Source: an uncultured archaeon | GTDB taxonomy: Archaea > Thermoproteota > Bathyarchaeia > Bathyarchaeales > Bathycorpusculaceae | Direction of reading: 5' to 3' | Length of the DNA stretch: 64,000 nucleotides | Assembly: GCA_938023865.1 (NCBI GenBank) | Contig: CALJDG010000019.1 | Coordinates: 852-64,851, forward strand | Shown: positions 12,927 to 62,106 of the stretch, in pieces | How positions within the stretch are numbered: position 1 is the first letter of the stretch | Layout: each line of letters starts with the position of its first letter | Position numbers and translations under genes: made by a program | The notes under the pieces: generated by a model | Databases searched by the model: none | What the model was told of the DNA's origin: nothing | The model's input: the letters and a program-made list of their open reading frames with translations, nothing else

Positions 12927-12995
12927 AACGTGCAAACTCCATTCTTTTGGTCATCCTAACAGAAGGCTTCTCAATCTTTCATGTAGGCTAATGTT

Positions 12996-14105: not shown

Positions 14106-14141
14106 CGAAGGCAGCCCAACATATGATATGAAAAGAGAAGG

Positions 14142-15368: not shown

Positions 15369-15443
15369 CTTTTAAGCCTAACCTAAATGCTGAGGGCATA
15401 TAAAACTTGTTTTAAGGGTTGGCAAACTTCCTATACATACTTT

Positions 15444-15971: not shown

Positions 15972-16800
15972 TTTCCGTGCCTCCTTTCAAGATTGCGTAA
16001 ATGCCTTCTACAAGAGTCAGCCTTCTCCTTTGAATGAACTCACCGACAACAATTTTGCCTTCAAGCTCTTTATCGCTCATTCTTTCCGCCTCCGCTACCG
16101 TAACAGCGTTGTTCCTAAACCACTCCAGCATTTCCCTGATGTCTTTGAATCCGGCTCTTCTGCCATAGGCTGTTGGGCATTGGGTGACAACTTCTACAAA
16201 TCTAAAGCCATCCATTTGAAGCGCTTTTTTAAAGCACTCCTTAAGCTCTTTTTGATGGGCGGTTGTCCACTTTGCCGAGTAATTGGCTCCGGCAACAGCC
16301 GCAAGTTTAGCCGCATCCAACGGATGCTCAAAACTTCCATAAGGAGTTGTGGTTGTTCTTGTCTTTAAAGGCGTTGTCGGAGCCACTTGGCCACCGGTCA
16401 TTCCGTAAATCATGTTGTTGCCCATTATGACAATAATATCGGTGTTTCTCCTTGCAGCATGCACAAAATGTCCAATGCCAATACCAACAATGTCGCCGTC
16501 TCCACCGAAGACAACCACATGCAAGTCCGACCGCAGAAGCTTTATGCTTGTAGCAACCGGGATGCTTCTTCCATGCAGCGTGTGGATAGAATCCGCCAAA
16601 TAATATGGCGAAGGTATCCAAGAAGAGCAGCCAATCCCGCTGACAAAACAGAATTTTTTAAAATCGTCATAGCCAAGCTCGTGAACAGCCCTTATAAAAG
16701 TGTCGCTGAGGGTGTATAATCCACAGCCTGGACAGAAGGGGAAACGTAACCCCGGCCTTAAGTAATTGCTAGGCGAAAAAGCCTTTTCACTCATTCTCAC
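15964..16800 (-). CDS. 2-oxoacid:ferredoxin oxidoreductase, beta (TPP-binding) subunit (cluster 1)
   Basis: FCPGCG near the N-terminus. GGDGD...NNMIYGMTGGQ is the TPP-binding motif. Confidence 0.9.
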   Translation of the reverse strand: MRMSEKAFSPSNYLRPGLRFPFCPGCGLYTLSDTFIRAVHELGYDDFKKFCFVSGIGCSSWIPSPYYLADSIHTLHGRSIPVATSIKLLRSDLHVVVFGGDGDIVGIGIGHFVHAARRNTDIIVIMGNNMIYGMTGGQVAPTTPLKTRTTTTPYGSFEHPLDAAKLAAVAGANYSAKWTTAHQKELKECFKKALQMDGFRFVEVVTQCPTAYGRRAGFKDIREMLEWFRNNAVTVAEAERMSDKELEGKIVVGEFIQRRRLTLVEGIYAILKGGTENA

Positions 16801-19983: not shown

Positions 19984-21834
19984 TTATTGAGTTAACGTAA
20001 GGTTTTTCGATAGTTGGTGGGCCGCATCCTTCAAACCAAGCCTTTCAAAGGTTGTTAATGTGGGTATTCCTCTTTTGTCCCATCCGCGTTTCGCATAAAA
20101 CGCATCGAGAAGCGTGTCAAACTTCGCTTTATCAAGCCTTGCTCCTTTATGGGGACCCTTTGTGATGGGCTCTGTAAACCAGCGTTTTGGCGGGTAATCC
20201 ATTAGGCGACTCCAACTTTGGCCGAACTCCCGTACCCAGAAGGCCCTTATTAGGACGTATATCCTGTCAGCTATTCTATAAAGCATGTCTTCAAGCGTTA
20301 CCTCCATGCCGGTGGCCGTCTTCATAAGCCTCGGGTACCACTCCAGCGGAAAACCGAGTTCAATCCATGGAAGTCGACATGCAACAAGAGATTCAAACAT
20401 TCCTCCCCTTATTCTCTGGAACTCTATTACTTTATCCACTTTGGCTTCTGTGTATCCTTCTCTGTCTGTTCTTATTTCCCACGCGATGACCCACGCCTCT
20501 TTATGGTGGGCACCTATTGATGACGTTGCAAAGGCGAGAGCCATCCCAGGGACAGTGTGACAATCATAGGCTGACACCTCGAGCCCCTTAATATGCATAG
20601 CCCAATTTTGTGAATCCCCACCGAGTTTTTGGCTTATCCTCATAACTCCTTCAGCTAGTAAGTTTCCAAGCTCTCCACGTCGGTATGCAATATCATGAAT
20701 TAAGGTTTTTACTTTTTCAAAATCTCCCCACTCCACTCCGTCTTTAATCAGCCCTTTCTCAGCTGCTTCCATCGCAAATCCTATGTTGTTACCCAAAGAA
20801 ATAGTGTCTATGCCAAGTTCGTCTGCCATCCTATTTAAAACGGAGACTTTTCCAAGATGCCCCAACCCAATATTCGAGCCTAACATGGCAACATTTTCAT
20901 AATCAAGTTCGGACTCCTTACCCTCAAAGTCGATTACAACATTTCCACACGCCATATTACAGTATGGACAACCTCTACGTTTAACTTTAGCCGCCTCCAT
21001 CGCAAAACCATTTATGAGATTACCAAATTCAAAGACGCCCTCTTTGAAGTTATAGGCAGGTAAAACACCGTTTTCATTAGCCCAATCTATAGTTGCCATC
21101 GTTCCCTGCCTTATCCAGAAGCCATAATAGTCTCTGCTTCTAATGTCGTCATAAGCCTCCTTAACGAGCCTATTATAACCCTCGGGATCTGCTAAAGGAA
21201 TATCTTTTGATCCCTTAAAGACTATAGCCTTAACCTTTTTAGAGCCCATAACGGCGCCCATTCCGGGCCTACCGCCGGCTCGCCCTTCCTGTGAAACAAT
21301 CGTTGCGTATCTAACCATGTTTTCTCCGCCAGGTCCTATGACGAGTGCTCCAACATCTTTTCCATGCACCTCTCTGAGCTCCTTCTCCGCTTCAAAAGTT
21401 GTCTTACCCCACATACCATTTGCACTTAAAATGCAGCCCTTATTCTCCTCCACATAGATATAAACGGGTCTCTCAGCTTTTCCTTCCACGACTAAGGCGT
21501 CAAATCCAGCCCTCCGCATCTGCACTGCAGCCATAGTTCCGACATTCCCATCCCCATAACCCCAAGTAAGCGGACTTTTGGCGGCTATGACCAACTTCCC
21601 TAAACTTGGTCCAGGAAGGCCCGTTAGCGGACCAGCAGCAACTACAAGCTTGTTTTCAGGACTAAAAGGATCTATTTCCGGTTTTAACTCATCGAAGAGG
21701 ACCTTAGCGGCAAAACCCCTTCCACCAATATATTTTAAAGCGAAATTAACGTCGTACTCTTCAACATCAACTTTCCTCTTTGAAAGGTTAACCCTTAAAA
21801 TCTTGCCGTTCCACCCATACATCTCCATCACCAT
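19984..21834 (-). CDS. aor: aldehyde:ferredoxin oxidoreductase family (tungstopterin enzyme)
   Basis: The N-terminus [18 protein letters not shown] is typical of AOR. Length is about 610 aa. It also carries the [12 protein letters not shown] and CPYCNMACG regions. Confidence 0.9.
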
Positions 21835-25885: not shown

Positions 25886-27223
25886 ATGGCAAAAGTAAGG
25901 GTTATTATAATGGGCGCAGCCGGAAGGGACTTTCACAATTTTAACGTCTACTTTAGGGATAACGATGCCTATGAAGTTGTGGCTTTCACAGCCACTCAGA
26001 TTCCAGGTATAGAGGGAAGAGTATATCCGCCCGAGCTCGCTGGCAAAAAATATCCGAACGGTGTGCCAATTTATCCAGAAATAGAACTTGCGAGGCTGAT
26101 AAGGGATTTTGACGTTGATCAAGTTATTTTCGCCTACAGCGACGTCTCTCACGAACACGTTATGCACAAAGCGTCAATAGTGCTGGCAAATGGTGCGGAC
26201 TTTAGACTTATGGGGCCAAAGACAACGATGCTTAAGGCTAAAGTTCCATTAATCTCTGTGGGCGCTGTAAGAACTGGTTCCGGAAAAAGCCAAACATCGC
26301 GACAAGTGGCCAAAATCTTGAAAGGTAAAGGCTTAAACGTGGTGGTTGTTAGACATCCTATGCCCTATGGAGACTTGCGCAGGCAGATCTGCCAACGCTT
26401 CGCGTCTCACGAGGATCTTGACCGATATGAGTGCACTATTGAGGAAAGAGAAGAATACGAACCGCACATAGACAATGGAGTGGTTGTATACGCCGGTGTT
26501 GACTACGAGAAGATTTTAAGGGAAGCTGAAAAGGAGGCGGACATCATAGTTTGGGATGGGGGAAACAATGACACCCCCTTTTACAAACCAGACCTTCACA
26601 TAGTTTTGGCAGATCCCCATAGGGCAGGACACGAAATAACGTATCACCCAGGAGAGGCCAACCTCAGGATGGCAAACGTGGTGATAATAAATAAGGTCGA
26701 TACGGCAGATCCCCAAAACGTCAGTTTCGTTAAGGATAATATAAGGAAGGTTAATCCAAACGCTATTATTCTTGAGGCCTCATCACCAATAACCGCTGAC
26801 AAGCCTGAGCTAATTAAAGGTAAACGGGTGCTCGTAATTGAAGATGGTCCCACGTTAACTCACGGAGACATGCCTTACGGTGCAGCAACAATAATGGCAA
26901 AACAGCTTGGAGCAAGCGAGTTAGCTGACCCAAGACCATACGCTGTTGGCTCAATAAAAAAGGCATTTGAAAAGTATCCCCACCTTGGAACAGTTCTCCC
27001 AGCCCTAGGCTATGGAGAAAAGCAAATTGAGGAGCTTAATGAAACAATTATGCGCACACCGTGTGACGTTGTAGTTATCGGAACACCAGTAGATCTAAGA
27101 AGAGTTATGAAAATCTCCAAGCCAACGGTGAGGGTGAAATATGAACTTAAAGTTCTGGGGCCATTATCTCTAGAACAGATTTTGGAAGAATTCATCGGGA
27201 AAGTGCAGAATCATGGGAAATGA
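25886..27223 (+). CDS. COG2403-type P-loop NTPase (predicted GTPase, related to cyclic 2,3-diphosphoglycerate synthetase family)
   Basis: N-terminal RVIIMGAAGRDFHNFN. Walker A-like GAVRTGSGKSQTS. Length is 445 aa. The family call is from memory of this N-terminal signature. Confidence 0.5.
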   Translation: MAKVRVIIMGAAGRDFHNFNVYFRDNDAYEVVAFTATQIPGIEGRVYPPELAGKKYPNGVPIYPEIELARLIRDFDVDQVIFAYSDVSHEHVMHKASIVLANGADFRLMGPKTTMLKAKVPLISVGAVRTGSGKSQTSRQVAKILKGKGLNVVVVRHPMPYGDLRRQICQRFASHEDLDRYECTIEEREEYEPHIDNGVVVYAGVDYEKILREAEKEADIIVWDGGNNDTPFYKPDLHIVLADPHRAGHEITYHPGEANLRMANVVIINKVDTADPQNVSFVKDNIRKVNPNAIILEASSPITADKPELIKGKRVLVIEDGPTLTHGDMPYGAATIMAKQLGASELADPRPYAVGSIKKAFEKYPHLGTVLPALGYGEKQIEELNETIMRTPCDVVVIGTPVDLRRVMKISKPTVRVKYELKVLGPLSLEQILEEFIGKVQNHGK

Positions 27224-51146: not shown

Positions 51147-51764
51147 TTGTCATCGAAAAAAGTGAGGGATAAATGGCGCAGCAAAGCTTGGTATACAGCT
51201 GTTGCTCCACCATACTTTGGAAACGTTGAATTGGGCACAATACCAGCAGACGAGCCGGAAAAACTCATCGGAAGAGTTATGGAGGCAACGCTTTACGATA
51301 TTACTGGCGACTTTTCCCACCAATACCTAAAATTGTACTTCCAAATTACACGGTTAGAGGGCAAAACAGCCCGCACAATGTTTAAGGGGCATGAATATTC
51401 AAGGGACTACCTTAGAAGTCTTGTTAGGCGAAGAACAACAAAGGTTGATGGAATTTTCAACGTCTCAACAAAAGATGGATACAGATTTAGAGTGGCGGTT
51501 TGCGCATTCACCCTTTCAAGGATAAAGACTTCACAGGAGCATGCTATACGCAAAATTATGGCGAAGATGGTTGATGATAAAAGCGCCAACCTAACAATGG
51601 ACCAGTTTGTTCAAGAAATGGTTCTTGGGAAAATAGCATCAGATATTTACAATGAAGCGAGGAAAATTGTTCCCCTTCGCCATGTTGGTGTTAGGAAGTC
51701 TAAGCTTCTGACACAGGTGGCTCAGTTACAAGCGCCACTTCAAAGTACTGAGCAACAGAGTTAG
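51147..51764 (+). CDS. rps3ae: 30S ribosomal protein eS1 (S3Ae)
   Basis: VRDKWRSKAWYTAVAPPYFG is the N-terminal signature. TTG start lies 6 nt after GGAGG. Confidence 0.9.
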   Translation: MSSKKVRDKWRSKAWYTAVAPPYFGNVELGTIPADEPEKLIGRVMEATLYDITGDFSHQYLKLYFQITRLEGKTARTMFKGHEYSRDYLRSLVRRRTTKVDGIFNVSTKDGYRFRVAVCAFTLSRIKTSQEHAIRKIMAKMVDDKSANLTMDQFVQEMVLGKIASDIYNEARKIVPLRHVGVRKSKLLTQVAQLQAPLQSTEQQS

Positions 51765-52306
51765 CCTTCAATAACTTTTTTGCCATATTCGTAGCCCATT
51801 TCAAAGGCGTTTAGGTTTAATTCCTCTGTTCCCTTTGGCACATTAACCTTAATTGACTCTCTCAGGGCTTCTTTGTCGACAATTCCAGTAATTGCCGTGA
51901 AAGCCCCCAACATAGCGACATTAGCAACAATCCTTCTTCCCAGCTCTTCGGCCATCCTTGTGGCTGGAACGCGGAAAACCTTCACGTCTTCAATTTTTCT
52001 CTCGTTGGGAATCATGTCCGGGTCAAGTATTATTGTCCCTCCTTTTTTAACAGTCTCTGCATACTCATTGTAGGCGTGCTGAGACATTACCACTAAAATA
52101 TCCGGTTCGGTGACTTTTGGAAAGTCAATCTCATAGTCTGCTATTACGACTTCAGATCTGCATGCTCCACCCCTCGACTCAGGCCCATAAGACTGTGTTT
52201 GTACGGCGTGTTTTCCGCCGTATATACACGCGGCTGTAGCCACCATAATTCCGGACTTAATTATTCCTTGTCCGCCAAAACCTGCAAATCTGATTTCGAC
52301 ACGCAT
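51761..52306 (-). CDS. 2-oxoacid:ferredoxin oxidoreductase, gamma subunit (cluster 2)
   Basis: FAGFGGQGIIKSGIMVATAA...QTQSYGPESRGG. It is the last gene of the six-gene minus-strand cluster. Confidence 0.85.
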   Translation of the reverse strand: MRVEIRFAGFGGQGIIKSGIMVATAACIYGGKHAVQTQSYGPESRGGACRSEVVIADYEIDFPKVTEPDILVVMSQHAYNEYAETVKKGGTIILDPDMIPNERKIEDVKVFRVPATRMAEELGRRIVANVAMLGAFTAITGIVDKEALRESIKVNVPKGTEELNLNAFEMGYEYGKKVIEG

Positions 52307-52316
52307 AGTGCCTCAC

Positions 52317-53156
52317 CTACATTCCTTCCTCTTTCATTATTTGCGCTATTTTATTGTGAAACAGCTCCTCATAAGTTGGCTTTTGAATATCAACAAATTC
52401 GCCGACAACTATTCTTTCAGGGTTTATTTCCGCCTTAGCCGGGTCTGAAAAGTTGGCAACAACCACCACTTTCTTAAACCACTCCATCATTTCAAGCCCT
52501 GTTCGCATCTTGTTCCGGCGTCCATAGATCTCTGGGCAAGGTGATATAACCTCTATAAAGGAGAAGCCCTTTCTCTGCAGAAGCTTCTTTATGGACATTA
52601 TCAGCGTCCGCACGTGAAGAGTTGTCCATCTTGCCACATATGTGGCGCCAGCCGCCGTTGCCAAATGAACCAAGTTGAATGGATGCTCTATATTCCCATA
52701 AGGCGTTGTCGTTGTGAAGGCTTCTAGCGGCGTTGTTGGTCCAAACTGCCCGCCGGTCATTCCGTAGTTGAAGTTGTTGGCGCATATCACTTTAATTCCA
52801 ATATTTCTTCTAGCAGCATGTATGAAATGGTTTCCCCCTATGGCGAAGAGGTCGCCGTCGCCGCTTATAACGACAACTTCTAGCTCCGGGTTTGCGAGTT
52901 TAACGCCTGTCGCAAAGGCGATTGGACGCCCGTGAGTCGTGTGAAAGGAATCCACATTAGTGTAGCCAGCTGCCCTCCCAATGCAACCTATTCCTGAAAT
53001 GACGACAAGCTTGTCAAGGTTTATCTGCAGCTCGTCAACTGCATGCACAAAAGCGTTAAGTATTATGCCGTTTCCGCATCCGGAGCACCATATGTGGGGC
53101 ATCATGGCAGCTCTCAGATATTTTGAAAGAGGGTGCTGCTCGACGGTTTCTGTCAT
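52317..53156 (-). CDS. 2-oxoacid:ferredoxin oxidoreductase, beta (TPP) subunit (cluster 2)
   Basis: WCSGCGNG and SGDGD...NNFNYGMTGGQ TPP motifs. Paralogous to 15964-16800. Confidence 0.9.
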   Translation of the reverse strand: MTETVEQHPLSKYLRAAMMPHIWCSGCGNGIILNAFVHAVDELQINLDKLVVISGIGCIGRAAGYTNVDSFHTTHGRPIAFATGVKLANPELEVVVISGDGDLFAIGGNHFIHAARRNIGIKVICANNFNYGMTGGQFGPTTPLEAFTTTTPYGNIEHPFNLVHLATAAGATYVARWTTLHVRTLIMSIKKLLQRKGFSFIEVISPCPEIYGRRNKMRTGLEMMEWFKKVVVVANFSDPAKAEINPERIVVGEFVDIQKPTYEELFHNKIAQIMKEEGM

Positions 53157-54307
53157 TCACTATGCCTCCTTATAAATTCGAGAATTTCCATGGGCGTATG
53201 CGGTTCCTCACCTAATCTTGGCAAGTGAAAAACCGGCGTCTCTTTCGAGGCTCTTTCAACTTCCCTTACCATTTGCCCGCAATTCATTTCCGGAACAATT
53301 ATGGCTTTGGCTTTTTCAGCAGCCCTTGCCACATGCTCTTCTGGGAAAGGCCAGAGGGTTATTGGGCGTAGGAGTCCGGCTTTTATGCCTTGCTGTCTCG
53401 CCTTTCTCACGGCGCTTAGGGCTGCCCTTGCAACTATTCCATAGGCAAAGACCACTATTTCGGCGGAGTCCAACATTTGTTCTTCTACGCGGATAATTTT
53501 GTCAGAATTCTTCCTAATTTTGTCGCAGAGTCTCTTTACAAGTCTCATTTGAACCTCTGAGCTTTGTGTGCGTGGATAGCCGTACTCATCGTGGGTTAAG
53601 CCTGTTGCATGAAAACGGAAGCCTTCTCCAAAGCAGGCCATGGGTGGAACTAGATAGTCGTTGGGCATGAAGGGCGCATACTTGTCTGGCGGAGTGTTAG
53701 GCTTTTTGCGGTTAACAATCCTTATCTTTTCAGCTGGCGGTATAACCACCTTTTCCCACATGTGGGCGACAACCTCGTCAGCCATTACAAGCGCCGGAAT
53801 ACGGTAAGTTTCAGATAAGTTAAAGGCTTCTATTGTCAGGTCAAACATTTCCTGAGCAGAGGAGGGCGCTAAAGCAATGATCTCATAGTCGCCATGAGAA
53901 CCCCATTTGGCCTGCATGACGTCCTGCTGTCCGGGAAGGGTTGGCTGTCCAGTGCTTGGGCCCCCCCGCATTACATCAACAATTACGCATGGGGCTTCCG
54001 TCATAGCGGCTAAGCCTATATTCTCTTGCATTAAGCTAAAACCCGGCCCTGAAGTGGCTGTCATAGCTTTTAAACCGGCGTAGGACGCGCCTATTACTGC
54101 GGCTATGGAGGCTATTTCATCCTCCATTTGAATGTAGATTCCGCCAACTTTTGGCATTCGAGCTGCAATGTGCTCGGCTATTTCAGTGGCTGGCGTTATA
54201 GGATAGCCAGCGAAAAATCGGCATCCGGCTGCGATGGCGCCCTCTGCGCATGCTATGTCGCCGCTCATAAAATGCACACCAGTTAAGACCGTTTTTTCAC
54301 TATCCAT
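53153..54307 (-). CDS. 2-oxoacid:ferredoxin oxidoreductase, alpha subunit (cluster 2)
   Basis: FFAGYPITPATEIAEHI...MEDEIASIAAVIGASYAGLKAMTATSGPGFSLMQE. Paralogous to 16797-17948. Confidence 0.9.
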   Translation of the reverse strand: MDSEKTVLTGVHFMSGDIACAEGAIAAGCRFFAGYPITPATEIAEHIAARMPKVGGIYIQMEDEIASIAAVIGASYAGLKAMTATSGPGFSLMQENIGLAAMTEAPCVIVDVMRGGPSTGQPTLPGQQDVMQAKWGSHGDYEIIALAPSSAQEMFDLTIEAFNLSETYRIPALVMADEVVAHMWEKVVIPPAEKIRIVNRKKPNTPPDKYAPFMPNDYLVPPMACFGEGFRFHATGLTHDEYGYPRTQSSEVQMRLVKRLCDKIRKNSDKIIRVEEQMLDSAEIVVFAYGIVARAALSAVRKARQQGIKAGLLRPITLWPFPEEHVARAAEKAKAIIVPEMNCGQMVREVERASKETPVFHLPRLGEEPHTPMEILEFIRRHSE

Positions 54308-54586
54308 CTAACATCCATCCTTACATTGTTTTTCCTTAACGAAAATTGCAAAGTCTGGACATATTGCCGTGCAGAAGCTACATAGTATGCAGCTTTTTTC
54401 ATCAACAACTCTTGGAGGATGAACTCCTCTGGCATTAATCTCGTCAGATTCCTCTAAAACTTTTCTGGGACAGTATTGAATGCAGAAGCCGCAACCCTTA
54501 CACTGGTCTTTTAATATATGGATTTCAGCCTTTGGCCTTGAAACCTTCTCAAGGTCTAAGGGGGTTCTCCAAAGCCTTTCTGGCAT
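54308..54586 (-). CDS. 2-oxoacid:ferredoxin oxidoreductase delta subunit (2x[4Fe-4S] ferredoxin-like)
   Basis: 92 aa with CKGCGFCIQYCP and CILCSFCTAICP motifs. It abuts the alpha gene and hdrA with 0-nt gaps. Confidence 0.85.
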   Translation of the reverse strand: MPERLWRTPLDLEKVSRPKAEIHILKDQCKGCGFCIQYCPRKVLEESDEINARGVHPPRVVDEKSCILCSFCTAICPDFAIFVKEKQCKDGC

Positions 54587-56992
54587 TTAAGTCCCTCCAT
54601 CTCTTAAGAAAACCTTTTTGGCGTGTTCTATTTCTTCCCGGGTTATGCTCTTCACAATCTTTTGCATTTCATAAATCTTGGAGGCGAATCTTTCTCCTTC
54701 CGCTGCTGTAACCCATAACAGCTGAAGTCTTTCTTTGTTTAACTTGTTCTGTTCCATTTTCTTCCATAAGCGTTCCACACGTCTTTGGGTGTGATAGTTG
54801 GCGTTAATATAGTGGCAGTCTCCCGGGTGGCAGCCAGCCACAAGGACTGCGGCGGCGCCTCTTGCAAAGGCTCTTTCAACAAATTTTGGAGCAACCCTTC
54901 CCGAGCACATTATTCTAATTATTCGGACGTTTGGCGGATACTGCATCCTACTGACTCCGGCAAAATCTGCACCTGCATAGGCGCACCAATTGCAGCAGAA
55001 AGCGACAATTTTCTTGTCGGCATCATATTCCGTAACGGAGTCAATTTGAGCTATTATCTGCTCATCAGCGAAGTGGTTCTGGGTTAATGCATCGATTGGG
55101 CATTCTGCGGCACATGTTCCGCATCCTCCACAAGCGGCCTCAACAATTTCAACGCGCTTAAGCTCTTTGTTAAGAGTTATCGCGTTGTAGGGGCAAACCT
55201 TTGTGCAAAGTCCACAAGCCTTACATTTTTCCACATTCAAAATTGGCGTAATGGCCTCAACCGTGACTTTACCCTTAGCCATTAATATGCCAGCTCTGGC
55301 TGCAGCTGCGCTGGCTTGTGTTACGCTGTCCTTTATGTCTTTTGGAGCTTCAGCGCACCCGGCGAAAAATATGCCTCCCGTGGCGGCGTCCACTGGCCTA
55401 AGTTTTGGGTGGGCCTCCATGAAAAATCCGTCCTGTGTCCTCGAAAGAGTCAAAAGCCTCTGTATCACTTCGCTGTCTTTTCGCGGCTCAATCCCGACAG
55501 ATAGAACAACCATGTCAAAGTTCATTTTATAAGGCTCGTTCAAAAGCGTGTTTTCGCCTATGAGCCAGAGGTTCCGGGTCTTCTTGTCCTCAATTATTTT
55601 TGCCGGAAGCCCCCGGATGAATATTACGTCTTCCTTTTTAGCCCTCTTGTATAGGTCTTCAAAGCCCTTTCCATATGCACGAATATCAACATAAAAGACG
55701 TAGATTTCAGTTTGAGGCCAGTGCTCTTTGATGAGGAGGCTGTCCTTTATGGTGTTCATACAGCAAACATTGCTGCAGTAGGTTCGTCCAGTCCTATTGG
55801 AGCGGGAGCCAACACATTGTATGAAAGCCACACGCTTCGGAACCTTCATGTCGCTGGGCCTAATAAGCCGTCCTCCAGACGGACCGCCAGCATTAATTAG
55901 CCTTTCAAATTCCAGAGATGTAATCACATTAATATATTTGCCATAACCGTACTGGGGAAGCGCGGATGGGTCGAAAACGTCTGCTCCCGTCGCCACTATT
56001 ATCGTTCCTACTTCTAGTTCCACGGTTTCAGGTTTCATTGTGAAGTCTATGGCTTGCCTGTCGCAAGATTTAATGCATTTGTCGCATACTATTACGCCGT
56101 TTTTGTTTAGGCATAGGTTCATGTCAATTATGTAGGTTGATGGAACCGCTTGTGCAAACGGCGTGTAAATGGCGTGTCTCAGGGCTAAGCCAGCGTCAAA
56201 CTCGTTTGGCGCCATCAATGGACAAACTTTCGAGCACTCGCCACACGCCGAACAGTTTTCCTTCACATAACGCGGCTTTTTTAACACTTTTACTCGGAAG
56301 TTGCCGATATACCCCTTTACATCGATAACTTCACTGTTTGTTAATAGTTCAATGTTTGGGTGATGCCCCACATCAGACATTTTTGGGGCAAGAATGCATA
56401 TGGAACAGTCCATCGTTGGAAAAGTCTTATCTATTCTCGCCATCATCCCGCCGATGCTCGGTTCCTTCTCCACCAAATAAACCTTATGACCGGTGTCAGC
56501 AAGATCCAGTGCTGCTTGAATCCCTGCAACGCCGCCGCCAATTACAAGTGCCTTTCTTATAATCGGCACTTCAATTTCCTTGGCTGGCTTTAGTAATGCC
56601 GCCTTGGCCACAGCCATTTTCACAAGGTCTTTGGCTTTTTCAGTTGCCGCCTTCCTATCATGGAGGTGGACCCAACTGCACTGCTCCCGTATGTTAGCCA
56701 TCTCAAAAAGGTACTTGTTCAACCCAGCCTCTTCGCACACTTTTCGGAATGTGGGTTCGTGGAGGCGGGGGGAGCATGAAGCAACAACCACACGGTTAAG
56801 CCTGTACTCCTTAATATCACTCTTTATGAGCTCTTGCCCTTGGTCTGAACATGTATATCGGTAATCCCTCGCAAAAACAACGTTTGGAAGTGTGGAAGCG
56901 AACTCTGCGACCTCTTTACAATCAATAGAGCCCGCAATATTCAAACCGCAGTGACAAACATAAACCCCTATGCGTATTTCCTCTCTCGCCAT
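54587..56992 (-). CDS. hdrA: HdrA-like flavoprotein fused to a C-terminal MvhD domain
   Basis: N-terminal IGVYVCHCGLNIAG...VVVASCSPRLHE. FAD fold VIGGGVAGIQAALDLA. IQCVGSRS motif. Ferredoxin inserts CSACGECSKVCP, CKACGLCTKVCP and CGGCGTCAAECP. The C-terminal about 145 aa (FCCNWCAYAGADFAG...RIMCSGR...GCHPGDCHY) is MvhD-type. Confidence 0.85.
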   Translation of the reverse strand: MAREEIRIGVYVCHCGLNIAGSIDCKEVAEFASTLPNVVFARDYRYTCSDQGQELIKSDIKEYRLNRVVVASCSPRLHEPTFRKVCEEAGLNKYLFEMANIREQCSWVHLHDRKAATEKAKDLVKMAVAKAALLKPAKEIEVPIIRKALVIGGGVAGIQAALDLADTGHKVYLVEKEPSIGGMMARIDKTFPTMDCSICILAPKMSDVGHHPNIELLTNSEVIDVKGYIGNFRVKVLKKPRYVKENCSACGECSKVCPLMAPNEFDAGLALRHAIYTPFAQAVPSTYIIDMNLCLNKNGVIVCDKCIKSCDRQAIDFTMKPETVELEVGTIIVATGADVFDPSALPQYGYGKYINVITSLEFERLINAGGPSGGRLIRPSDMKVPKRVAFIQCVGSRSNRTGRTYCSNVCCMNTIKDSLLIKEHWPQTEIYVFYVDIRAYGKGFEDLYKRAKKEDVIFIRGLPAKIIEDKKTRNLWLIGENTLLNEPYKMNFDMVVLSVGIEPRKDSEVIQRLLTLSRTQDGFFMEAHPKLRPVDAATGGIFFAGCAEAPKDIKDSVTQASAAAARAGILMAKGKVTVEAITPILNVEKCKACGLCTKVCPYNAITLNKELKRVEIVEAACGGCGTCAAECPIDALTQNHFADEQIIAQIDSVTEYDADKKIVAFCCNWCAYAGADFAGVSRMQYPPNVRIIRIMCSGRVAPKFVERAFARGAAAVLVAGCHPGDCHYINANYHTQRRVERLWKKMEQNKLNKERLQLLWVTAAEGERFASKIYEMQKIVKSITREEIEHAKKVFLRDGGT

Positions 56993-57004
56993 TTTCCAAT
57001 CACC

Positions 57005-58441
57005 TTAGACCCAAGACTTTAAATAACAATCAATTGAAAATGCCGCAATCCTTCCAGCACATATAGCCTCAATTATTGAGGCTGGACCAGTCACAGCGTC
57101 CCCTCCGGCAAAAACACCCTCAAGGGTTGTCTCCATAGTTAACGGGTTAACACAAATTGTTCCGTCTTCATTCAATTCAATTTCCTTAGGCAGGAAATAG
57201 AGATCTGGGACTTCGCCTATCGCCAGAACCACCATGTCCGCCTCTTTAACAAACCCGGAACCTTCAATTGGGATTGGTTTTCTTCTTCCGGTCTCGTCTA
57301 ACTCGCCTAACTTCATCCGATCAAACTCAACAGCGGATACCCCTTTATTGTCACCCAAAATTCTCTTCGGAGAGACTAAGAACTCAATTTTTGCACCTTC
57401 ATCTTCTGCCTCTTTAACTTCCCATGGGTTTGCGGGCATCTCCTCCCTAGACCTTCGATAAAAAATAGTCGCCTCCTTAGCCCCGTGTTTGATGGCGGTT
57501 CTTGCGGAGTCAACTGCAACATTTCCACCGCCAATGATGGCAACACGTTTACCCCTAACATTCGGCTCTACTCCAGAGTTAAACATCCAGAGAAAGTCTA
57601 GCGCGTGCACAACCCCTTCTAGGTCAACGCCCACAATTTTCAAGTGCTGCCCTTTATTGGCACCGACACCAACGAAAGTGGCGTCATAGCCTAGATCCCC
57701 TAAATTGCTAAAATCGACATCTTTACCGACCACCACGCCAGTCTTTATTTTGACACCAAGGTCCTTCAACGCTTGTATGTCCATGTCTAAAAGTTCCCTT
57801 GGAAGACGATAAGTGGGCAAACACTTCCTTAACATGCCACCAGGTTCTTTCATAGCCTCAAAAATTGTAACTTCATAGTTTTTCAAAGTTAAATCATGAG
57901 CAACGGTGAGCCCTGCAGGTCCAGAACCTATAACTGCAACTTTCTTTTTTGCTGGTTCTGCCTTAATTTTCCTTTTTTTCTCCTGTACAAATTCATCCCT
58001 CATTTTTTCGGCCTTTTTTATGACTTTGCTTAAGTCTAATCCTGCACGCTCCGGATGAAAACAGGCACAAATCGTGACTAGGGGGATGGGGGATACTTTA
58101 ACAATTTTTTTGATAGCATTTTCAAATGCTTGCGTACGTCCAGCTTTGATTGCGAACTTTCTGGTGTAGAGGAATATTTCTGGCGGTTTTAATGCTTGAG
58201 GACAGTGTCTATAGCAGCGATAACACCAGGCACAGAGCCAAATCTCATCTAAAACAAAAGCTTCTTCGATGTTTAAAAAAATCTTTTCAAGGATATTTCT
58301 CGGGTTGTACTCCCCTTTTAGGAGTTCTGCCATGGGGCAGCTTGCCGTGCATATGCCGCATTCAAAGCAGAACTTAATTTTCTCTGTGTCTGGATATTCG
58401 GCGAGAACTTCTTTATAAGTTACAGTTTTTCCGGCGCTCAA
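57005..58441 (-). CDS. GltD/NfnB/SudA-like NAD(P)H-FAD oxidoreductase with N-terminal HdrC-like 2x[4Fe-4S] domain
   Basis: CFECGICTASCP and CAWCYRCYRHCP (two CX2CX2CX3CP). Next come VAVIGSGPAGLTVAHDL, EAMKEPGGMLR..P.YRLP and IIGGGNVAVDSART, with a C-terminal GGDAVTGPASIIEAI. TTG start lies 8 nt after GGAGG. Confidence 0.8.
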   Translation of the reverse strand: MSAGKTVTYKEVLAEYPDTEKIKFCFECGICTASCPMAELLKGEYNPRNILEKIFLNIEEAFVLDEIWLCAWCYRCYRHCPQALKPPEIFLYTRKFAIKAGRTQAFENAIKKIVKVSPIPLVTICACFHPERAGLDLSKVIKKAEKMRDEFVQEKKRKIKAEPAKKKVAVIGSGPAGLTVAHDLTLKNYEVTIFEAMKEPGGMLRKCLPTYRLPRELLDMDIQALKDLGVKIKTGVVVGKDVDFSNLGDLGYDATFVGVGANKGQHLKIVGVDLEGVVHALDFLWMFNSGVEPNVRGKRVAIIGGGNVAVDSARTAIKHGAKEATIFYRRSREEMPANPWEVKEAEDEGAKIEFLVSPKRILGDNKGVSAVEFDRMKLGELDETGRRKPIPIEGSGFVKEADMVVLAIGEVPDLYFLPKEIELNEDGTICVNPLTMETTLEGVFAGGDAVTGPASIIEAICAGRIAAFSIDCYLKSWV

Positions 58442-58481
58442 CTTAGCCGCCTCCTATTATTGGAAGGCTCATAAATATAAA

Positions 58482-58497
58482 CTTTACAAATGTAAAG
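58482..58497. promoter_or_regulatory. 16-bp palindrome CTTTACA-AA-TGTAAAG in the divergent promoter region
   Basis: Perfect 7-bp arms with a 2-nt spacer. It directly abuts the TATA-like TTTATATT (minus-strand reading of 58474-58481) upstream of the gltD-like/hdrA/OFOR operon. Confidence 0.3.
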
Positions 58498-58571
58498 GTT
58501 TTAAATCGTAGGCCAAACCTCTTTTATAGACATCACAACTAAATAAACCATATAGACTGAGGAGCGCCTCT

Positions 58572-59597
58572 ATGGAAGAGGTTAAAGTTGTTTTTTACGG
58601 AGTCGGCGCCGTCGGAAGTTTAATAGCAAAATCTCTTCTCGAGAAGAAAGGCGTAAAGATAGTTGGCGCAATCGACATTGCAAAGGACAAGGCGGGCAAG
58701 GATTTAGGCGAAGTTTTAGACTTAAACAAAGAACTGGGCATAATAGTTTCAAGCGACGTTGATTCTGTACTTTCAAAAACGAGGCCAGACATCGCCGTTC
58801 ACGCCACATCATCCTACCTTAAAGACACTTATCCTCAAATAGCCTCCATAATCAAACATAGTATCAATGTCGTATCAACATGCGAAGAGCTCTCATACCC
58901 TTACTACTCAGAGCCAAAAATCGCGAGAGAACTGGACATGCTGGCTAAAAAGCATGACGTAACAGTTTTGGGAACCGGAATAAACCCCGGCTTCTTAATG
59001 GATACTCTTGTAATAACTCTTACGGCGGCATGCCAAAGAATAGATAAAATCGAAGCTGTTAGGATTATGAATGCCGCAACGAGACGTTTACCCTTCCAGA
59101 AGAAGATAGGCGCAGGCTTAACTTCCGAGGAGTTCAAGCAAAAAATTGAAAAGGGAGAAATAACCGGGCATGTGGGGCTTAAACAGTCCATTGCAATGAT
59201 AGCAGACGCTTTAGCGTGGAAACTTGATGAAATAAGGGCTGATTCTGTTGAACCGGTAATAGCCAGAGAAACAGTAAAAAGTGACTTTATAAGGGTTGAA
59301 GCTGGAAAAGTTGCAGGTTTGAGGCAGACGGCGAAGGGCATGATGAAGGGCGAAGGGGTCATAATCCTAGATTTTCAAGCCTATATTGGGGCGAAAGAAG
59401 AGTATGACGCCGTAACAATCACAGGCGTTCCAACAATCAAGCAGAAAATTCAGCCATGCGTCCACGGGGACGCAGGCACGGTGGCAGTAATTGTAAACTC
59501 TATCCCAAAAGTGCTAAAGGCTCCGGCCGGCTTACTGACCATGAAAGATTTGCAAGTTCCCTCAGCTGCTGTTGAGGATGTGCGGAAATACCTATAA
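58572..59597 (+). CDS. NAD(P)-dependent oxidoreductase, DapB-N-terminal/amine dehydrogenase (2,4-diaminopentanoate dehydrogenase-like) family
   Basis: N-terminal Rossmann VVFYGVGAVGSLIAKSLLEKKGVKIVGAID. Length is about 340 aa. The GTGINPGF motif is typical of this family. Specificity is unknown. Confidence 0.5.
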   Translation: MEEVKVVFYGVGAVGSLIAKSLLEKKGVKIVGAIDIAKDKAGKDLGEVLDLNKELGIIVSSDVDSVLSKTRPDIAVHATSSYLKDTYPQIASIIKHSINVVSTCEELSYPYYSEPKIARELDMLAKKHDVTVLGTGINPGFLMDTLVITLTAACQRIDKIEAVRIMNAATRRLPFQKKIGAGLTSEEFKQKIEKGEITGHVGLKQSIAMIADALAWKLDEIRADSVEPVIARETVKSDFIRVEAGKVAGLRQTAKGMMKGEGVIILDFQAYIGAKEEYDAVTITGVPTIKQKIQPCVHGDAGTVAVIVNSIPKVLKAPAGLLTMKDLQVPSAAVEDVRKYL

Positions 59598-59624
59598 TTT
59601 TAATGCTTTTTAGGAAGTGTCAGT

Positions 59625-60398
59625 TTGAGGTTTCGTGTTGATATAAGCTGCGATTTAGGCGAAAGCTATGGGGCATTCAGAATTGGGAACGACGAGGAAA
59701 TAATGCCCTACATAACTTCTGCTAATGTTGCGTGTGGTTTTCACGCCGGCGATCCTTTAACAATGGTGAAGACGGTAGCTTTGGCAAAGAAGTATGAGGT
59801 CGCCGTGGGTGCTCATCCTGGATATCCAGATTTAATGGGTTTTGGAAGAAGGGAAATGCAACTGTCAAACGAGGAGGCAAAAAGCTACATCATTTACCAG
59901 GTTGGCGCGCTTCTCGGATTTGTCAAAGTTTTCGGCTTAAGTCTTCAACATGTAAAGCCTCACGGTGCGATGTATAATACGGCATTAAAGGATAGAGAGC
60001 TTTCCAAGGCTATAGCTGAAGCTGTCGCAGAGCTGGATAAGAACTTAATTGTTTTCGCACCGCCGAAATCCACAATGGCTGAGTTGGCTGCCAACGCTGG
60101 ATTACGGGTTGCCTACGAGTTTTTTGCGGACAGAGCCTATAACCCGGACGGAAGTCTAGTTTCAAGGAGGAAACCTGGCGCTGTGATTGAGGAGCCTGAA
60201 GAGGTTGTTAAGCGAGCCATACAAGCCATAAAGGAAGGCGTAATTGAAGCTTTTAGCGGTGAAGTCGTGAAGCTTGGACAAATTCACACAATTTGTGTTC
60301 ATGGCGACACGCCAAAAGCTGTGAAGTTAGCTGAAGCATTAAGAAAAGGGCTTGCTAAAGCTGGGATAGATGTTAAACCGGTAAGCCAATTTATCTAA
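59625..60398 (+). CDS. pxpA: 5-oxoprolinase subunit A (LamB/YcsF family)
   Basis: DISCDLGESYGAF, ANVACGFHAGDP and VKPHGAMYN motifs. TTG start. Confidence 0.9.
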   Translation: MRFRVDISCDLGESYGAFRIGNDEEIMPYITSANVACGFHAGDPLTMVKTVALAKKYEVAVGAHPGYPDLMGFGRREMQLSNEEAKSYIIYQVGALLGFVKVFGLSLQHVKPHGAMYNTALKDRELSKAIAEAVAELDKNLIVFAPPKSTMAELAANAGLRVAYEFFADRAYNPDGSLVSRRKPGAVIEEPEEVVKRAIQAIKEGVIEAFSGEVVKLGQIHTICVHGDTPKAVKLAEALRKGLAKAGIDVKPVSQFI

Positions 60399-61147
60399 TG
60401 ATGCCCATGAGAGGCTTGGTTTATCCCTCTGCGCGTTATCTTCCCTTTGGCGATCACGCCCTAATAGTTGAGTTTGGCGATGTGATTGATTTGGCGGTGA
60501 ACAGCAAAGTCATCGCCTTAAACGAGGCTCTTTTAAAAGCTGACATAAAAGGCGTTGAGGAACTCGTCCCTACCTATAGGTCGCTGCTTGTTCGTTATAA
60601 TCCAGCTGAAATAACTTATGAACAACTTGTGGCACGCGTTAATGAAATTGAAAAGATGCTGAAAGACAAGCCCGCAGAAATGGTGAGAAGAAAGCTTATT
60701 GTTCCAATCGTTTACGGAGGCGCTTATGGACCAGACTTGGGTTATGTGGCTCAGTATCACGGGTTAACAGAGGAACAAGTTGTTAAGTTTCACTCAGGAA
60801 GAGACTATAGGGTTTATATGATAGGCTTCGTCGCCGGCTTCCCATACTTAGGCGACGTTCCAGAAGAAATTGCAACACCACGTCTTGAAACTCCGCGTCT
60901 AAAAGTGCCAGCAGGCTCTGTTGGCATTGCAGAAAGACAGACGGGAATATATCCATGTGAAGCCCCTGGTGGATGGCGGATAATAGGTAGAACACCAATC
61001 AAGCTTTTTGATCCAAGACAGCAACCCCCAGCTCTACTAAAACCTGGGGACGTTGTTAAATTCCAACAGGTTTCGGAGGAGAATTACAAGAAAATTGAGG
61101 AACTTGTTAAGATGGACGCTTTCAAGCTACAATTTGAGGAACTGTAG
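60398..61147 (+). CDS. pxpB: 5-oxoprolinase subunit B (KipI / allophanate hydrolase subunit 1 family)
   Basis: YLPFGDHALIVEFGD, VPTYRSLLVRY, GFVAGFPYLG and GGWRIIGRTP motifs. TAATG overlap with pxpA. Confidence 0.85.
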   Translation: MMPMRGLVYPSARYLPFGDHALIVEFGDVIDLAVNSKVIALNEALLKADIKGVEELVPTYRSLLVRYNPAEITYEQLVARVNEIEKMLKDKPAEMVRRKLIVPIVYGGAYGPDLGYVAQYHGLTEEQVVKFHSGRDYRVYMIGFVAGFPYLGDVPEEIATPRLETPRLKVPAGSVGIAERQTGIYPCEAPGGWRIIGRTPIKLFDPRQQPPALLKPGDVVKFQQVSEENYKKIEELVKMDAFKLQFEEL

Positions 61148-61149
61148 GC

Positions 61150-62106
61150 ATGAAAGTTTTTCAAGTGTTAAAACATGGATTTTTTACAACAGTGCAAGAC
61201 TTGGGTAGATATGGCTACCTTAAATATGGAGTTGCGATTTCAGGTGCTATGGACTCGTTTTCAATGATTGTGGCAAATTTACTCGTTGGAAACAACCCTA
61301 ATGACGCATGTTTGGAAATAACCCTTATAGGACCAGAACTTCAGGCGTTGGCAGATACTCAGATTGCTGTAACTGGAGGGAAAACTTCGGTGAAAATCGA
61401 TGGTGAGGAGGCACCAATGTGGCAAACATTAACCGTGCGCAAGGGAGACGTTGTCTCCATTGAAAAGATCGAAAGCGGATGTAGATGTTATCTTTCCATT
61501 AGAGGAGGAATAAACACGCCCATAGTTCTTGGGAGCAGGTCAACTTATGTCCGTGGACGCTTTGGTGGAATAAATGGAAGACAACTAAAAGCTGGAGATA
61601 TAATTGAAGGTTTCAACGTCTCACCAGTTGATGTTGTCTTTAGAATGCCAGAAAATCTCGTGCCGCGTTTTATGGAAAGTTTCACCGTGCATGTTGTCTT
61701 GGGACCCCAAGCAGACATGTTCACTAAAAGAGGAATTGAGACTTTCCTTTTAAACCCTTATAAGGTTACAATAGATTCTGACCGCATGGGTTACCGCCTC
61801 GAAGGACCAGCGATACAGCATAAGGGAAAGGTTGACATAGTCTCGGACGCCCTCTTGCCTGGGACAATTCAAGTCCCAAAAGATGGAAAACCCATCATTA
61901 TCATGAGGGATGCCCAAACAACCGGAGGCTATCCAAAAATAGCAGCTGTAATAACTCCAGACTTGGATAGACTTGGGCAAGCCAAGCCAAATGATATCAT
62001 AAGGTTCTTGGAGATTACACTAGAAGATGCCCGTAAAAGGCTTTTAGAGTATCGAGAAATGCTCACTGGTTTGGCTGGAAAGTTAATGAAATCTCTTAAC
62101 CTTTAA
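61150..62106 (+). CDS. pxpC: 5-oxoprolinase subunit C (KipA / allophanate hydrolase subunit 2 family)
   Basis: TTVQDLGRYGYLKYGVAISGAMD, SDRMGYRLEG and DAQTTGGYPKIA motifs. Confidence 0.85.
   Translation: MKVFQVLKHGFFTTVQDLGRYGYLKYGVAISGAMDSFSMIVANLLVGNNPNDACLEITLIGPELQALADTQIAVTGGKTSVKIDGEEAPMWQTLTVRKGDVVSIEKIESGCRCYLSIRGGINTPIVLGSRSTYVRGRFGGINGRQLKAGDIIEGFNVSPVDVVFRMPENLVPRFMESFTVHVVLGPQADMFTKRGIETFLLNPYKVTIDSDRMGYRLEGPAIQHKGKVDIVSDALLPGTIQVPKDGKPIIIMRDAQTTGGYPKIAAVITPDLDRLGQAKPNDIIRFLEITLEDARKRLLEYREMLTGLAGKLMKSLNL

Follow-up and report, generated by a model that had tools for sequence, protein, structure and literature searches.

A conserved six-gene operon of Bathyarchaeia suggests an HdrA-based complex that would link a 2-oxoacid:ferredoxin oxidoreductase to NADP+

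Bifurcating HdrA proteins have three electron branches, namely an MvhD adaptor on the donor side (Mvh hydrogenase or formate dehydrogenase, Fdh), a high-potential HdrC branch and a low-potential branch formed by an inserted ferredoxin domain, and in the known Hdr complexes MvhD is the entry point for donors. Here we describe a cluster of six minus-strand genes in a stretch of 64,000 nucleotides (the window, below) from a contig of an uncultured archaeon of the family Bathycorpusculaceae, Bathyarchaeia (CALJDG010000019.1, positions 852 to 64,851; assembly GCA_938023865.1). The cluster encodes a stand-alone flavoprotein of the NfnL/GltD type (protein 1), a fusion of HdrA and MvhD (protein 2) and the delta, alpha, beta and gamma subunits of a 2-oxoacid:ferredoxin oxidoreductase (OFOR). 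This composition suggests that the operon encodes a previously undescribed complex which splits the electrons of 2-oxoacids between NADP+ and ferredoxin.

Among the described systems, the MvhAGD-HdrABC, FdhAB-MvhD-HdrABC and HdrA2B2C2 complexes share with the cluster an HdrA that is about 60% identical (Methanothermococcus wolfeii), with its iron-sulfur (Fe-S) clusters and the Lys/Glu pair at the flavin adenine dinucleotide (FAD), as well as MvhD and an HdrC-like di-cluster domain; the fusion of MvhD to HdrA is a feature in common with HdrA2, or type Ia HdrA. In contrast to all of these complexes, the window lacks HdrB, a CCG domain and heterodisulfide chemistry, the HdrC-like domain forms one polypeptide with an NADP(H) flavoprotein, and the partner is a thiamine pyrophosphate (TPP)-dependent OFOR instead of a hydrogenase, Fdh or F420H2. 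In Methanosarcina acetivorans, HdrA2B2C2 takes reduced ferredoxin as the donor toward the HdrC/HdrB branch (PMC5296606), and two reports describe Hdr hard-wired through a polyferredoxin to Fwd in CO2-fixing supercomplexes (PMC13518236, PMC13580544).

Three other systems combine similar parts in different ways. Type III HdrA, or HdrA-NfnB, of ANME-1, Bathyarchaeota, Deltaproteobacteria and Chloroflexi associates a GltD/NfnB module, 44-48% identical to that of the cluster, with HdrA and MvhD (PMC9012536, PMC12054007), but there the GltD body interrupts the inserted ferredoxin domain of HdrA, whereas in the cluster it is a separate polypeptide with an HdrC-like domain of its own and the ferredoxin domain of HdrA is intact. 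Unlike the cluster, the 12 sampled loci with linked HdrA, most of them of the fusion type, all lack nearby OFOR genes; the fusion complexes are uncharacterised as well. The Bfu-family enzyme WorABCSL of Acetomicrobium mobile cannot oxidise its -520 mV donor without reducing both NAD+ and ferredoxin, and the logic proposed here is similar in that a low-potential ferredoxin-type oxidoreductase would be plugged via Fe-S subunits into a bifurcating core reducing NAD(P)+ and ferredoxin (PMC12318220). However, the activity of WorABCSL has been demonstrated whereas that of the cluster is only predicted, the core is BfuABC with flavin mononucleotide (FMN) as opposed to HdrA-MvhD with FAD and an NfnL-like flavoprotein, and the oxidoreductase is a tungstopterin enzyme as opposed to a TPP-dependent OFOR; BfuB and BfuC (NuoF/NuoE-like, FMN) domains were not found in the six proteins, and the resemblance to Bfu is functional only. 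Finally, in tubeworm symbionts and Thioflavicoccus mobilis, the korABCD genes of a 2-oxoglutarate:ferredoxin oxidoreductase (OGOR) are interspersed with flxABCD-hdrABC, an NAD(H)-linked module that contains HdrA; direct electron hand-over between the two has been hypothesised (PMC6315080). Unlike the cluster, these gammaproteobacterial loci include the FlxABCD NADH module along with HdrB and HdrC and have been proposed to operate in the direction of the reductive tricarboxylic acid (rTCA) cycle.

Protein 1 shares with the large subunit of NfnSL (NfnAB) the fold, the FAD and NADPH motifs and two [4Fe-4S] clusters. Unlike in NfnSL, no gene for NfnS (PyrK-like, [2Fe-2S] and FAD) is present in the cluster, the Fe-S domain of protein 1 is of the canonical 8-Cys HdrC type, and its partner is HdrA-MvhD, with an Ord-like gene as the other neighbor. 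An OFOR linked to pyridine nucleotide by an added FAD subunit has precedents in the phenylglyoxylate:NAD+ oxidoreductase PadEFGHI and the 2-oxoglutarate:NADP+ oxidoreductase of Azoarcus evansii; to our knowledge, in neither of them does HdrA or MvhD connect the OFOR with the flavoprotein. Thus, the cluster clearly belongs to the HdrA-based modular redox complexes and is neither a heterodisulfide reductase nor an NfnSL, type III HdrA or Bfu enzyme. A gltD-like/hdrA-mvhD/korDABG unit was not found described in the literature searched, which mostly leaves subscription journals out of coverage; this agrees with a preliminary reading of the same DNA made without database searches (the sequence-only reading), which knew of no characterised complex of this composition, although there are conceptual precedents. 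Genome papers on Bathyarchaeia list the parts separately, namely Oor (PMC7886697) and "MvhD/hdrA" together with "MvhB" (PMC11697101).

Protein 2 combines HdrA and FlpD/MvhD in a single polypeptide (Table 1). The HdrA core consists of an N-terminal cluster domain, a thioredoxin-reductase-like FAD domain, an inserted ferredoxin domain and a C-terminal ferredoxin domain, in this order, and is 59.8% identical over 644 aa to the crystallised bifurcating HdrA of M. wolfeii (5odc_A). Every Fe-S ligand Cys column of 5odc_A is kept, and so are the FAD-N5 lysine (K409, K416 in protein 2) and its positioning glutamate (E356, E363 in protein 2), which have been named as hallmarks (PMC12054007); furthermore, the inserted ferredoxin domain is uninterrupted across 5odc_A residues 246-303. 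Given the retention of all ligands, of the Lys/Glu pair and of the intact inserted domain, the three electron branches of a bifurcating HdrA are present in protein 2.

Protein 1 is GltD/NfnB-like according to both Pfam and NCBIfam. Its N-terminal domain matches HdrC (residues 29-110 of 5odc_C) as well as Fer4_8/Fer4_17 and contains two full CxxCxxCxxxC motifs (C25/28/31/35 and C70/73/76/80), all eight cysteines of which are retained without exception in 14 orthologues, the most distant of them 37% identical; of the GltD-type cluster motif, which is degenerate, only C125 and C127 remain. The HdrB-clasping C-terminal extension of HdrC was not found in protein 1, where an NfnL-type flavoprotein follows from aa ~115 instead. 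The GxGxxG motif for FAD is located at aa 172 and that for NAD(P)H at aa 304, and the second Rossmann motif reads GGGNVAVDSAR...YRRSREEMPA. In the alignment, YRRS..EMPA is common to protein 1 and the NADPH-oxidising GltD-like domain of Thermococcus sibiricus NfnA (9n5u), and because of this shared motif we infer a preference of protein 1 for NADP(H) over NAD(H). The AF2 model of protein 1 (pLDDT 88.8, pTM 0.89) has its best fold match in the NfnI large subunit (5jca_L, TM 0.71), and this superposition places the di-cluster domain in the position of the Fe-S output wire of the NfnL, GltD and DPD proteins. The domain resembles HdrC at the level of sequence, and it might dock at the HdrC site of HdrA. 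Orthologues of protein 1 diverge at the 2'-phosphate site for NAD(P)H (alignment A1, window aa 326-334) into a YRRS/T group, which includes the lineages with adjacent OFOR genes, and a C-x-x-E/D group (P0244, P0246, P0257 and P0295); this split suggests that the family, judging by these residues, switched between NADP and NAD use.

Apart from its orthologues, the proteins most similar to the protein 1 body (44-48% identity) are GltD modules embedded in HdrA at residue ~290 (e.g., P0249, P0251, P0259, P0296 and P0352), where HdrA may or may not end in an MvhD domain, and in P0324 MvhD is fused to a GltD body within one protein. The HdrA-inserted forms have been named HdrA-NfnB or type III HdrA (PMC9012536, PMC12054007). 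These natural fusions show that an NAD(P)H module of this kind works in physical contact with HdrA.

The identity of protein 2 also brings up the explanation that HdrA-MvhD partners with a distal, CCG-domain-containing HdrBC and reduces a disulfide in the manner of Methanosarcina HdrA2B2C2, with the OFOR and the GltD-like protein acting as donors or being simply encoded nearby. Protein 2 indeed exceeds the NCBIfam cut-off for HdrA2; hdrA2 of M. acetivorans is likewise unlinked from hdrB2C2 (PMC5296606, PMC9012536), and HdrCB is listed far from this locus in a complete Bathy-6 metagenome-assembled genome (MAG; PMC11697101), a point that also counts against the complex proposed here. However, the CCG motif is absent from all six frames of the 64 kb, none of the annotated open reading frames (ORFs) of at least 300 aa in the window is a hydrogenase, Fdh or HdrB, and all related loci that carry the six genes, those of Bacteroidales included, are without hdrBC. 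Moreover, protein 1 already contributes an HdrC-like domain with invariant cysteines, fused to an NADP(H) flavoprotein where HdrB would follow, and most Bathyarchaeia are devoid of CoM/CoB metabolism (PMC9534799). We therefore regard a distal HdrBC partner as quite improbable. The sequence-only reading had noted the lack of both HdrB and HdrC and of hydrogenase or Fdh genes in the window; this holds for the hydrogenase, Fdh and a CCG partner, whereas residues 20-112 of protein 1 turn out to be HdrC-like.

The remaining four adjacent genes make up the four-subunit set of the Kor/Oor type, with alpha and gamma exceeding curated 2-oxoacid cut-offs; the searches of Pfam and NCBIfam hidden Markov models thus bear out the domains that the sequence-only reading had assigned to all six proteins. 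The nearest solved relatives are a generic 2-keto acid enzyme of Pyrococcus furiosus (1yd7, alpha E 2e-133) and the four-subunit 2-oxoglutarate synthase 8ys5 (8ys5_A, alpha E 9e-83). The best 2-oxoglutarate-family matches of beta (OorB-type PRK09628) and delta are below the respective cut-offs, and the substrate is probably 2-oxoglutarate. The delta subunit also resembles the FwdF/MvhB polyferredoxin modules. A C-terminal Cys pair of delta (C88/C92) was considered as an adaptor feature and rejected, being absent from L001 (a related bathyarchaeal locus) and from Bacteroidales.

Table 1. Features of the six-gene cluster (window coordinates)
Feature	Coordinates	Strand	Evidence
Putative promoter region, divergent intergenic	58442-58571	.	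130 nt; G+C 36% vs 44% in the window
Protein 1 gene (478 aa, TTG start): stand-alone NfnL/GltD-type FAD/NAD(P)H flavoprotein with 8-Cys helical di-cluster N-terminus	57005-58441	-	ORF listing; Pfam/NCBIfam; PDB matches; AF2 model
HdrC-like 2x[4Fe-4S] domain, protein 1 aa 20-112	58106-58384	-	TIGR03290 E 2e-18; PDB 5odc_C E 8e-16
NfnL/GltD-like body, protein 1 aa 116-476	57014-58096	-	9n5u NfnA E 1e-86; 5jca_L E 1e-78
Protein 2 gene (801 aa): HdrA-MvhD fusion (HdrA2 / type Ia HdrA)	54587-56992	-	ORF listing; NCBIfam HdrA2 NF040770 1270 bits (cut-off 1100); Pfam FlpD aa 662-782, E 2e-49
HdrA core, protein 2 aa 4-653	55034-56983	-	Full-length alignment to 5odc_A, E 4e-260
MvhD-type [2Fe-2S] adaptor domain, protein 2 aa 659-782, fused to HdrA	54647-55018	-	PDB MvhD 5odc_D E 4e-43 (aa 659-778)
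OFOR delta gene (92 aa), 2x CxxCxxCxxxCP	54308-54586	-	ORF listing; OGOR_delta 69 bits (below cut-off of 125); 8ys5_D OGOR delta E 8e-10
OFOR alpha gene (384 aa)	53153-54307	-	ORF listing; POR_N and PFOR_II; PRK08659 587 bits (cut-off 411)
OFOR beta gene (279 aa), TPP-binding, Cys 24/27/58/207	52317-53156	-	ORF listing; TPP_enzyme_C; 8ys5_C E 2e-68
OFOR gamma gene (181 aa)	51761-52306	-	ORF listing; POR domain; PRK08537 247 bits (cut-off 235)

The ORF listing reproduces exactly the coordinates of the six genes in the sequence-only reading, and the recomputed intergenic gaps (12, 0, 0, -4 and 10 nt) as well as the AT-rich, promoter-like region upstream are the same as given there. The delta start codon abuts the stop codon of hdrA-mvhD, the alpha start abuts the delta stop, the alpha and beta genes overlap by 4 nt (ATGA), and the gamma gene shares its last 4 nt with the convergent S3Ae gene. 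The putative promoter region is the only sizeable non-coding stretch at the cluster; it contains a putative TATA-like box, TTTATATT, at 58474-58481 on the minus strand, 40 nt 5' of the protein 1 start, and GGAGG immediately precedes the TTG start codon. The six genes of the cluster are translationally coupled and have one putative promoter region upstream. Scans for sigma-70 promoters and terminators within the cluster gave chance-level results, these being bacterial-type models that are inapplicable to archaea, and the tRNA and Rfam scans yielded no match.

We propose that the products of the six genes form a single soluble redox machine made of two conserved blocks. The first would be a Kor/Oor-type four-subunit OFOR (delta-alpha-beta-gamma), and the second an HdrA core without HdrBC, which consists of the HdrA-MvhD fusion and the stand-alone NfnL/GltD-type NADP(H) flavoprotein, whose HdrC-like di-cluster domain would wire its FAD to HdrA. 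In the most economical mapping of the branches, the OFOR would be attached at the MvhD side via delta, NADP+ would be reduced at the HdrC-like branch, and free ferredoxin would react at the inserted domain. A 2-oxoacid would be oxidised at TPP, and the electrons would pass through the [4Fe-4S] cluster of beta and the two clusters of delta to the [2Fe-2S] cluster of MvhD and the HdrA clusters, and on to the FAD of HdrA. From there, one electron would move downhill through the HdrC-like clusters to the FAD of protein 1 and to NADP+ (about -320 mV), while the other would be transferred via the intact inserted ferredoxin domain of HdrA to ferredoxin. The predicted net reaction is 2 2-oxoacid + 2 CoA + NADP+ + 2 Fd(ox) -> 2 acyl-CoA + 2 CO2 + NADPH + 2 Fd(red). 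Compared with the Hdr of methanogens, NADP+ would stand in for the heterodisulfide and HdrB, and the OFOR for the Mvh hydrogenase or Fdh, such that a peptide-fermenting archaeon would gain NADPH directly from 2-oxoacid oxidation while still reducing ferredoxin. In this reading, a 2-oxoacid, probably 2-oxoglutarate, would be the reductant of NADP+ and probably of ferredoxin as well, with WorABCSL as the functional precedent.

The same proteins could be read in the opposite direction, as a bifurcation-boosted 2-oxoacid (2-oxoglutarate) synthase, in which electrons from reduced ferredoxin or from a donor docking at MvhD would be split at the FAD of HdrA, to NADP+ and to the OFOR (-500 mV or lower), which would reductively carboxylate an acyl-CoA, by analogy with the CO2-fixing supercomplexes of Hdr, polyferredoxin and Fwd. 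The similarity of delta to the FwdF/MvhB modules is relevant here given that such modules wire Hdr to Fwd in these supercomplexes (PMC13518236, PMC13580544). This direction is also in line with the naming of the closest solved four-subunit relative, 8ys5, as a 2-oxoglutarate synthase, with the adjacency of a citrate synthase gene to the cluster in one Bacteroidales locus (L012) and with the proposal that, in rTCA symbionts, kor genes interspersed with flx-hdr feed OGOR (PMC6315080). On the other hand, NADP+ would drain off half of the low-potential electrons, a donor module (hydrogenase, Fdh or FrhB) was not found in the window, and the context of the window is amino-acid catabolism. The role of MvhD as the donor entry in this family likewise argues against a synthase, whereas the use of reductive carboxylation of succinyl-CoA by Bacteroidales speaks for it. 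On balance, a synthase appears improbable, and the oxidative, NADP+-reducing direction is our tentative preference, held with a little less than even confidence. A third assignment, with F420H2 as the donor and NADP+ and the OFOR as acceptors, was rejected as thermodynamically unfavourable (-360 mV compared with a mean of -410 mV). It would be workable only in reverse, as confurcation, an option kept in view for the FrhB-linked L007 type.

Comparison of gene neighborhoods shows that the gene set is conserved well beyond the genome analyzed here. More than 120 clusters of HdrA2 are 85-100% identical to protein 2, nearly all from Bathyarchaeia, the orthologues of protein 1 in the homologue list range from 93% down to 62% identity, and at least 17 entries of the two match lists pair up by the length of the longest contig. 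Across Bathyarchaeia, HdrA-MvhD (85-95% identity over 120 clusters) is far better conserved than protein 1 (62-93%). The six genes are found in identical order in the bathyarchaeal loci L001-L004 and L102; the flanks of these loci are conserved too, and therefore, taken alone, they reflect only lineage synteny. A search of representatives detected more distant stand-alone orthologues of protein 1 with identical architecture and 38-55% identity; in this search, the stand-alone proteins that join an HdrC-like N-terminus to a GltD body fall into about eight clusters at 50% identity. In L005 (55%), the same six genes are accompanied by a different downstream flank. In Bacteroidales MAGs (43%), the order is delta-alpha-beta-gamma/gltD-like/hdrA-mvhD, with overlapping stop and start codons and with SusC/TonB-type flanks; a metagenome scan places gamma directly 5' of the gltD-like gene in all eight close Bacteroidales loci, and hdrA-mvhD follows the gltD-like gene wherever the contig continues. 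The six-gene order thus recurs across Bathyarchaeia (HdrA2 identity 80-95%) and is permuted in Bacteroidales, so that it is not unique to this genome. Between Bathyarchaeia and Bacteroidales, the identity is about 70% for HdrA-MvhD, about 44% for protein 1 and 48-63% for the OFOR subunits.

In two of the Bacteroidales loci (L012, ~9900, and L013, ~5430), the reading frame of hdrA is broken at the FAD-binding motif by a 1-nt insertion, CTTGGACCTG. Both loci have identical sequence at this site, the insertion comes from a single assembly, and hdrA is intact in L095, L098 and L099, so that decay of hdrA in Bacteroidales was rejected.

Other lineages retain the association in looser forms. In L008-L010 (47%), the gltD-like/hdrA-mvhD pair is located beside a divergent operon that encodes a fused alpha-beta OFOR, gamma and a small ferredoxin, whereas in L011 (43%) a Por-like OFOR and a polyferredoxin are encoded ~4 kb downstream of the pair. 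Altogether, the pair is adjacent in all seven lineages sampled, which are few and not fully independent. HdrA is adjacent in 7/7 of these lineages compared to 12/80 GltD-like loci (Fisher p 9e-6), and OFOR genes are within ~6 kb of the pair in 5/7 compared to 3/80 (Fisher p 3e-5), the control being the 80 GltD-like loci among the matches listed in a genome contig scan with generic GxGxxG patterns, which yields mostly generic GltD and misses close orthologues. In L008, the minus-strand operon at 86-5441 encodes, in addition to the alpha-beta OFOR and gamma, an Old-Yellow-Enzyme/2,4-dienoyl-CoA-reductase-like flavoprotein, an ATC_hydrolase-domain protein and a 66-aa ferredoxin, with a thiolase gene downstream. 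Separately, in a Candidatus Fraserbacteria MAG (L053, 9180-13300), a GltD-like gene lies between gamma and alpha-beta with no HdrA, an operon that looks, from its gene content, like a simpler NAD(P)-linked OFOR of the kind represented by PadEFGHI; the same gamma/GltD adjacency is seen in L051.

The conservation pattern also bears on the most serious competing explanation, namely that the operon encodes two separate, co-transcribed enzymes, a KorDABG-type OFOR and an HdrA-MvhD/GltD-like ferredoxin:NADP+ oxidoreductase (similar to Nfn or FNR), which are coupled by soluble ferredoxin. The two blocks are internally conserved and yet swapped in order between Bathyarchaeia and Bacteroidales, the gltD-like/hdrA pair occurs without OFOR in L007 and L094, and delta always accompanies alpha (it travels with alpha in the Bacteroidales gene order, too), as in canonical four-subunit OFORs. 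Conversely, the linkage of the blocks persists across domains of life, through the permutation of the gene order and with three types of OFOR, and in the window the delta start directly abuts the hdrA-mvhD stop. An enzyme that uses only NADP(H) and ferredoxin would leave the third branch of a fully conserved bifurcating HdrA-MvhD unused, and no stand-alone ferredoxin gene was found in the 64 kb, where all seven CxxCxxCxxxC motifs of the six-frame translation fall inside the six-gene cluster. Two independent enzymes thus seem unlikely, even if this explanation carries appreciable weight.

Several further observations weigh against a single complex of the composition proposed here. The permutation in Bacteroidales indicates that [gltD-like/hdrA-mvhD] and [delta-alpha-beta-gamma] move as two units. 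The OFORs of L008 and L011 are of a different type and non-adjacent; L094 (42%) contains only hdrA-mvhD and the gltD-like gene, with no OFOR; and in L007 (48%) the pair is found with FrhB, several HdrA/MvhD paralogues, an HdrC-like gene, GcvH and an Lpd-like gene, again with no OFOR. All related sequences come from MAGs. As an ordinary part of four-subunit OFORs, delta need not be an adaptor, and a search with a synthetic query found no MvhD-delta fusion among the top matches, each of which covers only the MvhD part (~60%) of the query. The HdrC-like sequence of protein 1 is no proof of docking at the HdrC site because every NfnL, GltD and DPD protein has its output wire at this position, and the natural fusions join the GltD body to HdrA at the ferredoxin branch, not at the HdrC site (PMC12054007). 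Finally, a donor near -500 mV can reduce NADP+ or ferredoxin without bifurcation: with such a donor the net reaction is exergonic, and bifurcation is not strictly needed. This applies to WorABCSL as well, which nevertheless oxidises aldehydes only when both NAD+ and ferredoxin are available (PMC12318220).

When all these considerations are taken together, we lean slightly toward the view that the OFOR, HdrA-MvhD and the NADP(H) flavoprotein are functionally wired together, in whichever direction. That the six genes encode one machine in which the OFOR directly contacts HdrA is, in our judgment, the best explanation of the locus, although our confidence in it falls just short of even. With respect to the sequence-only reading, which envisaged an NAD(P)-coupled bifurcating or confurcating assembly, the domain composition, the recurrence across genomes and the contact of HdrA with GltD in natural fusions all support it, whereas the inclusion of the OFOR in one assembly and bifurcation or confurcation itself are still predictions.

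A broader interpretation is that the locus represents an HdrA-based bifurcating class without HdrBC, in which reduction of NADP+ through an HdrC-like/NfnL-type flavoprotein replaces that of the heterodisulfide, and in which the OFOR is hard-wired through delta and MvhD as the donor or, in reverse, as a CO2-fixing acceptor. We consider this generalization possible but rather doubtful. Under it, the gltD-like/hdrA-mvhD pair would be a general NADP-linked bifurcation socket into which an OFOR (in Bathyarchaeia and Bacteroidales) or FrhB (in L007) plugs. The L007 region (3394-17497, GCA_012974985.1) includes an FrhB-like gene 5' of the protein 1 orthologue and split or doubled HdrA along with separate MvhD genes 3' of it; an HdrC-like gene, a 271-aa gene without a Pfam match, GcvH and a dihydrolipoamide-dehydrogenase-like gene are located upstream. 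Here the HdrA/NAD(P) socket may exist in an F420- or lipoyl-linked form.

The re-oxidation of ferredoxin and the supply of NAD(P)H during peptide fermentation in Bathyarchaeia, which are among the most abundant archaea of anoxic sediments, have been described as unresolved (PMC9534799; see PMC7886697). If the proposal is correct, the complex of OFOR, HdrA and the NADP(H) flavoprotein would be a missing redox-balancing link in these archaea, and it would add to the HdrA family a new pairing of donor and acceptor, with NADP+ in place of the disulfide and a TPP enzyme in place of hydrogenase or formate dehydrogenase. The HdrA core would then be a modular socket common to Archaea and Bacteroidales, and part of the excess of hdrA over hdrBC in many anaerobes would be explained (PMC12054007). 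The prediction is open to direct testing, since a single operon encodes all six proteins and all are soluble. The six-gene set is shared by two domains of life and bears on the redox balance of Bathyarchaeia (PMC9534799).

The neighbors of the cluster in the window point to amino-acid catabolism. They include an Ord-like amino-acid dehydrogenase, aminotransferases, a 2-hydroxyacid dehydrogenase and an aldehyde:ferredoxin oxidoreductase; genes for the thermosome, S3Ae and SerRS are present as well. The Ord-like gene, of the 2,4-diaminopentanoate dehydrogenase family, is divergent from the cluster and holds the same position in other Bathyarchaeia and in L005 (L001-L005). Downstream of it, the window and L003/L004 have pxpABC-like genes of a 5-oxoprolinase (LamB/YcsF, CT_C_D and CT_A_B; 5-oxoproline to glutamate), a hint at a glutamate/2-oxoglutarate context; in the window, this plus-strand region spans 58572-62106. 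Two other plus-strand genes encode proteins of 597 aa (18088-19881), with no match in Pfam or NCBIfam, and of 445 aa (25886-27223), with no Pfam match. On the minus strand, 19984-21834 encodes a full-length tungsten-type aldehyde:ferredoxin oxidoreductase (AFOR_N and AFOR_C), another ferredoxin-reducing catabolic enzyme. A paralogous OFOR without delta is encoded at 15444-17948 (minus strand), with alpha, beta and gamma subunits that are 54, 47 and 40% identical, respectively, to those of the cluster, followed by genes for an acyl-CoA dehydrogenase and a threonine synthase (the region as a whole spans 12996-17948, minus strand). The delta-less paralogue and the delta-containing, HdrA-linked OFOR may represent two different electron outlets.

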